From Gammaproteobacteria bacterium TMED78 (GTDB lineage: Bacteria > Pseudomonadota > Gammaproteobacteria > Steroidobacterales > Rariloculaceae), in assembly GCA_002171615.1 (NCBI GenBank), contig NHEF01000021.1, forward strand, positions 38,574 to 102,573: DNA of 64,000 nucleotides. The letters are read 5' to 3'. Numbering within the stretch: the first letter of the stretch is position 1; every line of letters starts with the position of its first letter. The position numbers and the translations under genes are program-made. Positions 39,874 to 41,705 of the stretch are shown in pieces. The notes beneath the pieces were generated by a model. The model saw nothing but the letters and a program-made list of their open reading frames with translations. It was not told where the DNA came from and made no database searches.

Positions 39874-40545
39874 TTAAACAATATTTTTAATCGTAGGATT
39901 GAAAAAATGTCTACCACTTCCCATACCTTTTATAGCGCCTAAGAGCTCTTGATAATCTGATTCTTTATGTATTGGATCAATGACTGCAGAATTTATAATT
40001 AGTAATGGAGATTTATTATACCCATAGAAAAACTTAGCATAAGCATCCCCAATTTTCTCTAAATACTTCTTTTCTATTTTTTTTTCATAAGGTACATCTC
40101 TTTCAGAAACTCTCCTTAGTAATACATCTGCTGGCGCTTGTAAATAAATGACTAAATCAGGAATTGGAATATCATAATCTAGCTTATCTCTTATTTTCTT
40201 GTAGAGTTCAAACTCATGATTATCAAGATTGAGTTCAGCAAATAAACTATCTTTCTCAAAAATAAAATCTGCTACCCTTCCAGGAGAAAACATATCACCC
40301 TGTTGAATTTTCTCTAGCTGTTTAGATCTTTGAAATAAAAAAAATAATTGTGTTGGCAAAGCGGCATTGTTAGCATCTTCATAAAATCTATCTAAGAAAG
40401 GATTCTCATCAGCTCTCTCAAGAATCAACTCGCTCTTAAAAGTTTCGGCAAGTCTCTTTGCTAACGTAGTCTTGCCAACGCCTATAGGACCCTCTATAGC
40501 AATATAACTTGCTTCAATTGATTTGTTTTTTCTTTCTTCGCTCAT
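39874..40545 (-). CDS. deoxynucleoside kinase family protein
   Basis: 223 aa; P-loop IEGPIGVGKTTLAKRL, ERxxxENPFL motif and the LYLQAPADVLLRRV lid region. Confidence 0.8.
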   Translation of the reverse strand: MSEERKNKSIEASYIAIEGPIGVGKTTLAKRLAETFKSELILERADENPFLDRFYEDANNAALPTQLFFLFQRSKQLEKIQQGDMFSPGRVADFIFEKDSLFAELNLDNHEFELYKKIRDKLDYDIPIPDLVIYLQAPADVLLRRVSERDVPYEKKIEKKYLEKIGDAYAKFFYGYNKSPLLIINSAVIDPIHKESDYQELLGAIKGMGSGRHFFNPTIKNIV

Positions 40546-40571
40546 ATAATCAAATTATAGTTATCTCTATA

Positions 40572-41705
40572 TTAAAAAAGATAGTCTAATACTTTATCTA
40601 TCTTAATCATTCTTGTTTTATCACTAGATCTACCTTTATATTCAACCATATCTTTATCTAGCTCTTTATCAGAAACTACAACTCGATGGGTAACACCAAT
40701 TAAATCAGCATCTACAAATTGTGCTCCTGGCCTAACGTCTCTATCATCAAATAAAACATCGTACCCACTTTGTATGAGGGTCTCATAAAGCTTTTCAGAA
40801 ATCTCTTTAACTCTAAATGATTTTTTCATATTAATTGGAATAATAACAATGTTAAACGGGGCAATTTTTTTTGGCCAGATAATTCCTTTACTGTCATTAT
40901 TCTGCTGAATAGAAGCAGCTACTAACCGTGTAACACCCATCCCATAGCATCCCATATACATTGGACAATCCTTACCTGTTTCATCTGTTACTGATGCTTT
41001 CATTGACTTAGAATACTTTGTTCCGAGCTGAAAAATATGGCCTACTTCTATTTCTCCTGAATCATCTATTATGTGAAACTCTTCTGAAAGGCTCCCGCCT
41101 ATAGCACCTGGATCCGCCTTCTCTATAGAAAACTTTAGATCTAGTCTTTCTAAGATCCTTACATAGGCATTCCTCATAATGTCATATGTTTCGAGTAATG
41201 ATTCTTCATTAAGATGAAAAGAATAAGCATCTTTCATAAGAAATTCTCTAGATCTCATTACTCCAAATCGTGGTCTTATTTCATCTCTAAACTTTGTTTG
41301 AATCTGATAATAAATCAAAGGTAATTGTTTGTAGCTACTAATCTCATTTCTTGCTATGTCAGTAATAACCTCTTCATGGGTAGGGCCTAGACAAAACTCT
41401 CGATCATGCCTATCATTAAATCTAGCAAGTTCTGACCCATAATCTCCCCACCTCCCTGATTCATGCCATAGCTCAGCTGGCTGGACCATGGGCATAAGAA
41501 TTTCATATGCACCTGAATGATTCATCTCTTCCCTTATAATTTTCTGTATATTTCTTAAAACTCTCATGCCAAGGGGAAGCCAAGTATACAAACCTGAAGC
41601 TAGTCTCCTAATTAAACCAGCTCTGAGCATTAATTGATGACTGATTATCTCAGCATCTTTTGGAACTTCCTTAAGTGTATGTAAAGGAAAATTAGTTAGT
41701 TTCAT
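40572..41705 (-). CDS. proS: prolyl-tRNA synthetase lacking the INS editing domain
   Basis: 377 aa. Class II motifs are present ([26 protein letters not shown]; [13 protein letters not shown]), as is the anticodon-binding domain. The segment [36 protein letters not shown] joins the points that flank the roughly 180-aa INS domain in E. coli ProRS (572 aa). Confidence 0.9.

Follow-up and report, generated by a model that had tools for sequence, protein, structure and literature searches.

A prolyl-tRNA synthetase lacking any insert between motifs 2 and 3 in a marine gammaproteobacterial genus and in Candidatus Ratteibacteria

The window analyzed here is a 64,000-nucleotide stretch of contig NHEF01000021.1 (assembly GCA_002171615.1) from Gammaproteobacteria bacterium TMED78. 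On its reverse strand, an open reading frame (ORF) at 40572..41705 begins with ATG, contains zero internal stops and encodes 377 amino acids. From the frame itself, its match to PRK09194 and its status as the sole ProRS gene of the genome, it was assigned as proS, encoding a P-type prolyl-tRNA synthetase (ProRS) in which nothing is inserted between motifs 2 and 3, a form referred to below as INS-null. All features of proS given below lie on the same strand. Scored over the whole protein, the matches to PRK09194 (600.9 bits versus a cut-off of 558) and TIGR00409 (568.6 bits versus 306.7) both pass. The class II catalytic core at residues 96-269 (40899..41420) is uninterrupted, with tRNA-synt_2b (PF00587, E = 5.8e-32) matching in one stretch from position 3 to 179 of its 179 profile positions. 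Motif 2 (residues 139-155; 41241..41291) is intact and invariant across 32 aligned ProRS, and motif 3 (GCYGMGVTR, residues 252-260; 40926..40952) carries one replacement in the alignment, I256M. The proline-site segments GPTHEE, EFH and GCYG, together with motifs 2 and 3, supply invariant columns in this 32-sequence alignment, which includes the query. An anticodon-binding domain (HGTP_anticodon, PF03129, E = 6.8e-17; residues 286-376; 40578..40850) forms the C-terminus, with no extension beyond it. Pfam found no tRNA_edit domain in the 377-amino-acid protein.

Matches to PRK09194 and TIGR00409 are split in two, covering profile positions of about 1-218 and 409-564, and positions 219-408 of these bacterial ProRS models have no counterpart in the protein. 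In the P. aeruginosa enzyme (5ucm/8w8j), chain residues 10 to ~226 correspond to query residues 2 to ~218, and chain residues 414-572 to query residues 218-375. MAFFT alignment with ten relatives places the junction at E218/I219 (41049-41054), where DDSGE is joined directly to IEVGHIF with zero linker residues. Full-length relatives are 568-571 amino acids long; their ~187-194 extra residues all fall at the junction and comprise the INS domain plus both connector segments. A sequence-only reading of this DNA had described a P-type ProRS of 377 amino acids that lost INS and kept its class II motifs and anticodon-binding domain, and Pfam, NCBIfam and the alignments agree with it. The junction sequences that it quoted and its gap of ~180 residues were also correct. 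It had named a residual mini-INS as the finding that would speak against it. None exists: by MAFFT, by the motif 2 to motif 3 distance (110 residues) and by comparison of the connectors, zero residues are left.

The AF2 model of the query ProRS is of moderate confidence (pLDDT 80.4, pTM 0.80), with low-confidence parts in the motif 2 loop (residues 139-154) and at residues 32-40, and it gives TMq values of 0.83-0.85 to the P. aeruginosa, R. palustris and E. faecalis enzymes. In the model, strands 207-214 and 217-228 are joined by a two-residue turn over the junction (block pLDDT 77-87). The resulting beta-hairpin, predicted to close the deletion site (residues 207-228; 41022..41087), is drawn from the alignment, the model and a contig (X8) described below. 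Because alignments of the query with E-type ProRS chains run unbroken across this site, the deletion is predicted to recreate the direct strand-to-strand connection that E-type enzymes have here.

The same junction was found in five independent assemblies, namely the query genome (G000), its congener (G001) and three metagenome contigs. The congener (JAYZFC01, “XB_MAG157”) is the only other genome of the genus, and its ProRS aligns with the query over 376 residues, gap-free, at 82% amino acid identity. Among the metagenome contigs, one from JGI (L188) is 100% identical to the query and two from the ocean (L192 and L194) are 82-83% identical. X8, which derives from an independent DNA run, spans 40300-41201 with zero differences and bridges the junction at 41051/41052. 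At least 17 runs of marine metagenomes, spread over a dozen or more studies, contain the stretch. Because the junction is identical in the congener and in three metagenome contigs and is bridged by X8, the short proS is real DNA and not an assembly artefact. Note that the contig depth of marine runs spikes several-hundred-fold at 41212-41325, around motif 2 of proS. Short contigs of other organisms map onto this highly conserved segment, and the spike therefore reflects mapping and not the locus itself.

Between G000 and G001, proS has a dN of 0.104 and a dS of ~1.77 (saturated), for a dN/dS of ~0.06, and the gene order around it is unchanged. The gene is under strong purifying selection. In metatranscriptomes, short contigs match the two gene ends in two runs, and three short RNA-library contigs in all overlap proS or its flanks, although such libraries can hold DNA. 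RNA runs X18-X20 contained 0.08-0.13 of the sampled words. A claim that proS is transcribed was dropped, the short contigs being too few.

G000 measures 1.57 Mb in 28 contigs and is 98.77% complete, such that about 1% could be missing; completeness of G001 is about 90%. The 377-amino-acid protein is the only ProRS in G000. Genome searches with TIGR00409 and TIGR00408 found no second proS there, P-type or E-type, and so the second full-length gene that had been named as counter-evidence does not exist in this genome. These searches otherwise matched ThrRS, a 436-amino-acid class II enzyme and a 513-amino-acid frame on contig C12, which was ruled out as a second ProRS and reads as a dimeric-type GlyRS. 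This frame (L006 253-1794, outside the window) encodes a GlyRS of the alpha2 type; GlyRS in Gammaproteobacteria is usually alpha2beta2.

To survey editing domains, we used PF04073, which covers the INS, YbaK and ProXp families. It has zero matches in G000 at E≤1 and zero in G001 at E≤0.01, and is present in 39 of 41 genomes of a neighbourhood sample. Custom HMMs were made from 12 free-standing INS-like proteins of relatives and from 30 INS domains, and were run with filters off; hmmsearch of 6,121 six-frame ORFs of G000 returned no INS-like ORF (best E = 0.63). By these searches, INS-superfamily domains in cis or in trans (the triple-sieve INS/ProXp-ala/YbaK system) are absent from G000 and G001. 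The sequence-only reading had noted that no trans-editing factor lies in the window, and tRNA_edit genes are in fact absent both there and genome-wide. Its suggestion that trans-editing is encoded elsewhere is unsupported, given the PF04073 result for both genomes and the best six-frame E-value, and its remaining alternative is tolerated or otherwise-limited alanine mischarging.

Other proofreading is kept in G000. ThrRS (641 amino acids) and AlaRS (875 amino acids) both carry tRNA_SAD, of which there is no free-standing copy besides these two, and Dtd is present. ValRS, located in the window, is full-length at 916 amino acids. Both tRNA-Pro genes, (TGG) and (GGG), have C1:G72 and A73, which form the bacterial tRNAPro identity set (PMC11229370). 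Proline accounts for only 3.9% of residues in long ORFs of this genome (33% GC), so that the number of exposed codons is modest.

The distribution of the INS-null form was assessed in the GTDB family of the query, which includes genomes labelled Candidatus Rariloculus or Ca. Rariloculaceae at NCBI. In a sample of 24 other family genomes from 14 genera, the split profile match is confined to the query's genus, and proS is full-length wherever the contig permits reading, including in genomes of 1.2 Mb. The deletion, which the sequence-only reading proposed to check for clade-wide occurrence, is therefore general at the level of the genus (both genomes) and not at that of the family, whose other genera are full-length.

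A tree was calculated from 329 shared columns, with 48 junction-adjacent positions excluded. In it, three null sequences of the genus form a clade (100/100) with a stem of 0.29 substitutions per site (0.29-0.34 over two trees), and this clade is sister (90/83) to the family's full-length enzymes. A divergently transcribed UDG-family gene upstream of proS is also present in full-length relatives. Because the null clade adjoins the full-length clade of its family and this neighbour is conserved, the INS deletion is judged to have occurred in place, before the split of the two species. Transfer from a mini-INS lineage was ruled out by the tree and by identity (50-57% to mini-INS versus 70-75% to full-length enzymes).

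A first pattern scan of 185,579 species genomes matched the congener only, and a metagenome scan matched same-genus contigs only. The view that the form is unique to one genus was dropped after a loosened DNA pattern found an INS-null P-type ProRS in Candidatus Ratteibacteria MAG086 (L376; JAYEMH010000021.1, 2473-3561, reverse strand). Its junction joins SEEFVSFSKTGEE directly to IEIGHIF, with the same breakpoints as the query, and the protein shares 53% identity with the query in a 365-residue alignment that has three gaps (clade range 52-54%). Two related genomes (L420 and L421) share the null form, with frames of 392-396 amino acids that match profile positions 1-218 and 406/409-566, and 24 of the other sampled relatives have a full-length match. 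The three Ratteibacteria null genomes (G439-G441), for which completeness figures are not given, have no PF04073 match at E≤1.

The Ratteibacteria null clade (100/100) groups beside a full-length enzyme from the same lineage (96/97). The tree can be explained only if the null state arose twice, and 0 of 200 bootstrap trees are compatible with one origin. As judged from this protein phylogeny, INS and the connectors are shown to have been lost independently at least twice. The loosened scan had at least 120 matches, and among those listed were 29 loci without a ProRS-like ORF by a motif test; additional null lineages may exist.

By the motif 2 to motif 3 distance, ~80 relatives drawn from the 185,579 species genomes sort as full (+185-205 residues), as mini (+34-44) or, in a third class, as null (0). 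Alphaproteobacterial mini-INS forms from later scans have about 59-69 extra residues. All mini-INS enzymes (25/25) retain two conserved connector segments, SGED..AANVE and GD.SP.G..RG. Both are gone from the query, in which zero residues separate SGE from IEVGH. The truly unusual feature of this enzyme, which goes beyond the sequence-only reading, is the loss of connector stubs that every mini-INS enzyme keeps. Bacterial ProRS architectures that have been described are those with INS, with mini-INS, and E-type with a C-terminal extension (PMC3973320). The literature searched describes no zero-insert P-type ProRS, with three bacterial architectures named in that source, and the zero-insert P-type architecture thus appears to be undescribed.

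Mini-INS ProRS (L034, L029, L039, L113, L117-L119, L045 and L046) are scattered among full-length enzymes in the trees. One pair, L034 and the enzyme of an unpublished genome (G039), nests among order-level full-length enzymes. G039 encodes a mini-INS ProRS of 425 amino acids together with a free-standing tRNA_edit frame of 172 amino acids. The scattered positions suggest several independent reductions, all of which would have halted at the same stub of two connector segments. In Nitrospirae/Nitrospiria MAGs (L038, L040 and L042) and an Omnitrophota MAG (L052), the mini-INS stub of ~35 residues has two Cys pairs in a CxxC ... CxxC-like arrangement, the second pair being looser in one Nitrospirae sequence. 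This pattern suggests a putative zinc knuckle that replaces the editing domain.

To place the loss of editing domains in context, 400 gammaproteobacterial genomes of at least 90% completeness were sampled, including four that are unpublished (G077, G155, G299 and G309). PF04073 is absent from 47 of the 395 that are high-quality (~12%), which overturned an initial view that a genome with no INS-superfamily domain is exceptional. Nineteen of the 47 were listed: 4 have mini-INS ProRS, 5 have E-type ProRS, 3 have frames of 520-570 amino acids and 7 are unmatched, meaning no match to the query at E≤1e-15. Since at least four of the genomes that lack PF04073 have a mini-INS enzyme, the sequence-only reading was too firm in holding that a reduced INS is usually backed by free-standing factors.

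Three genomes, G129 (L114/L128), G084 (L115/L126) and G055 (L116/L129), have a P-type ProRS of 520-570 amino acids with an insert of INS length to which the Pfam tRNA_edit model is blind. This insert may be a degenerate editing domain. Three genomes of 0.3-0.4 Mb in the class sample (G062, G247 and G379) still match tRNA_edit (E = 1e-13 to 1e-15, anywhere in the genome), and extreme genome reduction alone is therefore not sufficient to remove the domain.

Twelve positions with conservation of 90% or more among 30 full-length relatives are altered in both species of the gammaproteobacterial genus. Six of these lineage-specific changes fall within residues 185-214, which make up 30 of 377 residues (binomial p = 1.5e-4). 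They form a patch immediately before the junction (F185L, R193S, V195E, V212I, L213I and A214D; 41064..41153) whose positions are conserved among full-length enzymes and, for the most part, among mini-INS enzymes as well. The residues replaced by F185L, V195E, A214D, I256M, E267Q and P339T/S are invariant in 55/55 full-length and in 24-25/25 mini-INS enzymes; Ile at position 256, for example, occurs in 55/55 and 24/25 of these, and in 3/3 Ratteibacteria null enzymes. I256M, E267Q, F185L and P339T/S are private to the gammaproteobacterial genus, the Ratteibacteria null enzymes retaining I256, E267, F185 and P339. Positions 195, 212 and 214 are altered in both null clades. In Ratteibacteria the changes are V195 to R or K, V212 to S and A214 to S, and its full-length relatives mostly have V195, V212 and A214 (one of six has I195 and S214). 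Because hydrophobic-to-polar changes recur in two null lineages, this convergence fits a picture in which residues 195, 212 and 214 once packed against the connector and would now be exposed.

Full-length P-type ProRS (E. coli; P. aeruginosa 5ucm/8w8j; E. faecalis 2j3l) are nearest to the query by sequence, at 508 bits to the P. aeruginosa enzyme and ~70-75% identity to gammaproteobacterial full-length enzymes in the N-terminal part. They share with it an orthologous locus and a tRNAPro with C1:G72 and A73. The query lacks their ~190 residues of INS and connectors, and hence the Ala-tRNAPro deacylase site. Mini-INS ProRS (Rhodopseudomonas palustris 2i4l, Caulobacter crescentus, PRK12325) resemble it in having a bacterial-type core, a C-terminal anticodon-binding domain and no functional editing domain, and deacylase activity is absent in mini-INS enzymes (PMC3973320, Figure 1A legend). 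The R. palustris enzyme matches the query at 376 bits and a model TMq of 0.84-0.85, but the PRK12325 score of 525.3 is below the cut-off of 550. Whereas mini-INS enzymes keep a stub of the connectors, the query has none, and its descent is from a full-length gammaproteobacterial enzyme and not from the alphaproteobacterial mini-INS lineage. In C. crescentus, mini-INS ProRS is paired with ProXp-ala (PMC3973320, PMC10164551), a gene that the query genome lacks.

E-type ProRS (M. jannaschii 1nj8, T. thermophilus 1h4q) also have no insertion at this point of the core: 1nj8_A residues 36-356 align to query residues 27-355 in one stretch, and model TMq values are 0.72-0.74. Identity is 20-26%, however, and the TIGR00408 score of 148.9 bits is well short of its 437-bit cut-off. 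The zinc-binding C-terminal extension of E-type ProRS, which ends in a conserved Tyr (PMC11229370), is absent from the query. The Ratteibacteria null enzymes share its breakpoints, TGE(E/D) followed directly by IEIGH, and have polar replacements at 195, 212 and 214, but they differ in their separate origin and in the four private positions.

An engineered E. coli deltaINS ProRS (Hati, Musier-Forsyth and co-workers), like the query a P-type enzyme without INS, shows a ~1200-fold loss in amino-acid activation (PMC12547528, section 3.1.2.2). INS supplied in trans fails to rescue it (PMC12547528). Unlike this crippled construct, the query evolves under purifying selection, has replacements next to the junction and serves a widespread organism as its sole ProRS. 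Because the E. coli construct loses so much activation, an active null enzyme would need compensation.

Both Ala and Cys are activated by ProRS in error. The resulting Ala-tRNAPro is cleared by INS in cis or by ProXp-ala in trans, and Cys-tRNAPro by YbaK (PMC6344894, PMC3973320, PMC10164551). Our overall interpretation, to which we assign a probability of roughly 0.7, is that the 377-amino-acid protein is a working housekeeping ProRS that lost INS and the connectors in place and most likely provides no post-transfer editing of Ala-tRNAPro. The host is an uncultured marine planktonic gammaproteobacterium, which would have this enzyme as its working ProRS. One in-frame deletion in the ancestor of the genus would have removed the whole of INS and the two connector segments, leaving two adjacent strands of the class II core connected as a simple beta-hairpin. 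A burst of substitutions would have followed, in which some conserved hydrophobic residues beside the junction became acidic, and proS would then have settled under strong purifying selection. Aminoacylation of tRNAPro by the enzyme is inferred from its sole-ProRS status and the dN/dS of ~0.06; sequence comparisons are likewise the basis for presuming that editing is lost and that the substitutions compensate. With no INS-superfamily domain in the genome, the cell most likely lacks both post-transfer editing of Ala-tRNAPro and YbaK-type clearing of Cys-tRNAPro. Fidelity would then rest on discrimination in the synthetic site, possibly pre-transfer hydrolysis, and tolerance of low-rate Pro-to-Ala errors. 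Pre-transfer editing in the synthetic site of ProRS has been reported by Hati et al. 2006, as cited in PMC11229370.

Other accounts of the locus were weighed against this interpretation. An editing factor or a second proS might have escaped assembly, or the short proS might itself be a binning or assembly artefact. The division of G000 into 28 contigs and the incompleteness of both assemblies (98.77% and about 90%) leave some room for missing sequence, yet both genomes of the genus lack PF04073, and the three Ratteibacteria genomes likewise pair a null ProRS with no PF04073. An artefact is at odds with the recurrence of the junction across five independent assemblies and with contigs from independent runs that span it, and a dN/dS of 0.06 is not pseudogene-like. 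We consider either version very improbable. Editing might instead be kept by a factor outside the INS superfamily, either the retained Dtd or an unrecognized deacylase acting in trans. The search covered known families only, Dtd is present, and the retention of ThrRS and AlaRS editing along with Dtd suggests that fidelity in general matters to the organism. However, no Ala-tRNAPro activity of Dtd is described in PMC11295145, tRNA_SAD is confined to ThrRS and AlaRS, and no deacylase is linked to proS, whose neighbours are the UDG-family gene, ORFs of 153, 223 and 276 amino acids (characterized by length alone) and ValRS. Such a factor seems to us quite unlikely.

It could also be that the synthetic site is selective enough against alanine by itself, with I256M in motif 3, E267Q and F185L tightening the proline pocket. 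Positions 256, 267 and 185 are all but invariant in full-length and mini-INS enzymes (55/55 and 24-25/25) and altered in both species of the genus, and the stem branch of the null clade is long. On the other hand, the Ratteibacteria null enzymes keep I256, E267 and F185, and these changes are therefore not required for the null form. Any tie of these replacements to alanine rejection would be hypothetical, and many mini-INS and E-type lineages manage without any INS-superfamily domain. A selective pocket of this kind is accordingly judged unlikely. We return to the interpretation of a working ProRS that most likely lacks post-transfer editing.

An extension of that interpretation can be put forward tentatively, at clearly less than even odds. 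In it, the zero-insert P-type ProRS would be a natural, fully active minimal enzyme, the replacements at 195, 212 and 214 would free the core from INS-coupled dynamics, and free-living marine carriers would decode proline without post-transfer proofreading. If true, this would be a natural answer to why engineered deltaINS enzymes fail.

Loss of editing is in itself nothing unusual, being common in small genomes, and this limits the novelty of these results. As far as the literature searched extends, what is new is the zero-insert architecture and its convergence. If borne out, this is a fourth bacterial ProRS architecture, a P-type core with nothing inserted, and at 377 residues it could serve structural and engineering studies as a compact natural scaffold. 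The natural removal of INS and connectors at least two times, with the resulting enzyme as the only ProRS, bears directly on the deltaINS literature, in which the loss of activation in E. coli deltaINS has been taken to prove that domain dynamics are coupled (PMC12547528). The convergent replacements provide a short list of residues for testing. For the organism, the result is a planktonic marine bacterium from which all INS-superfamily editing appears to be gone, yet in which ThrRS and AlaRS editing and Dtd are kept. Should its ProRS prove to be a fully active minimal enzyme, it would be a counter-example to the idea that editing loss belongs to host-restricted organisms.
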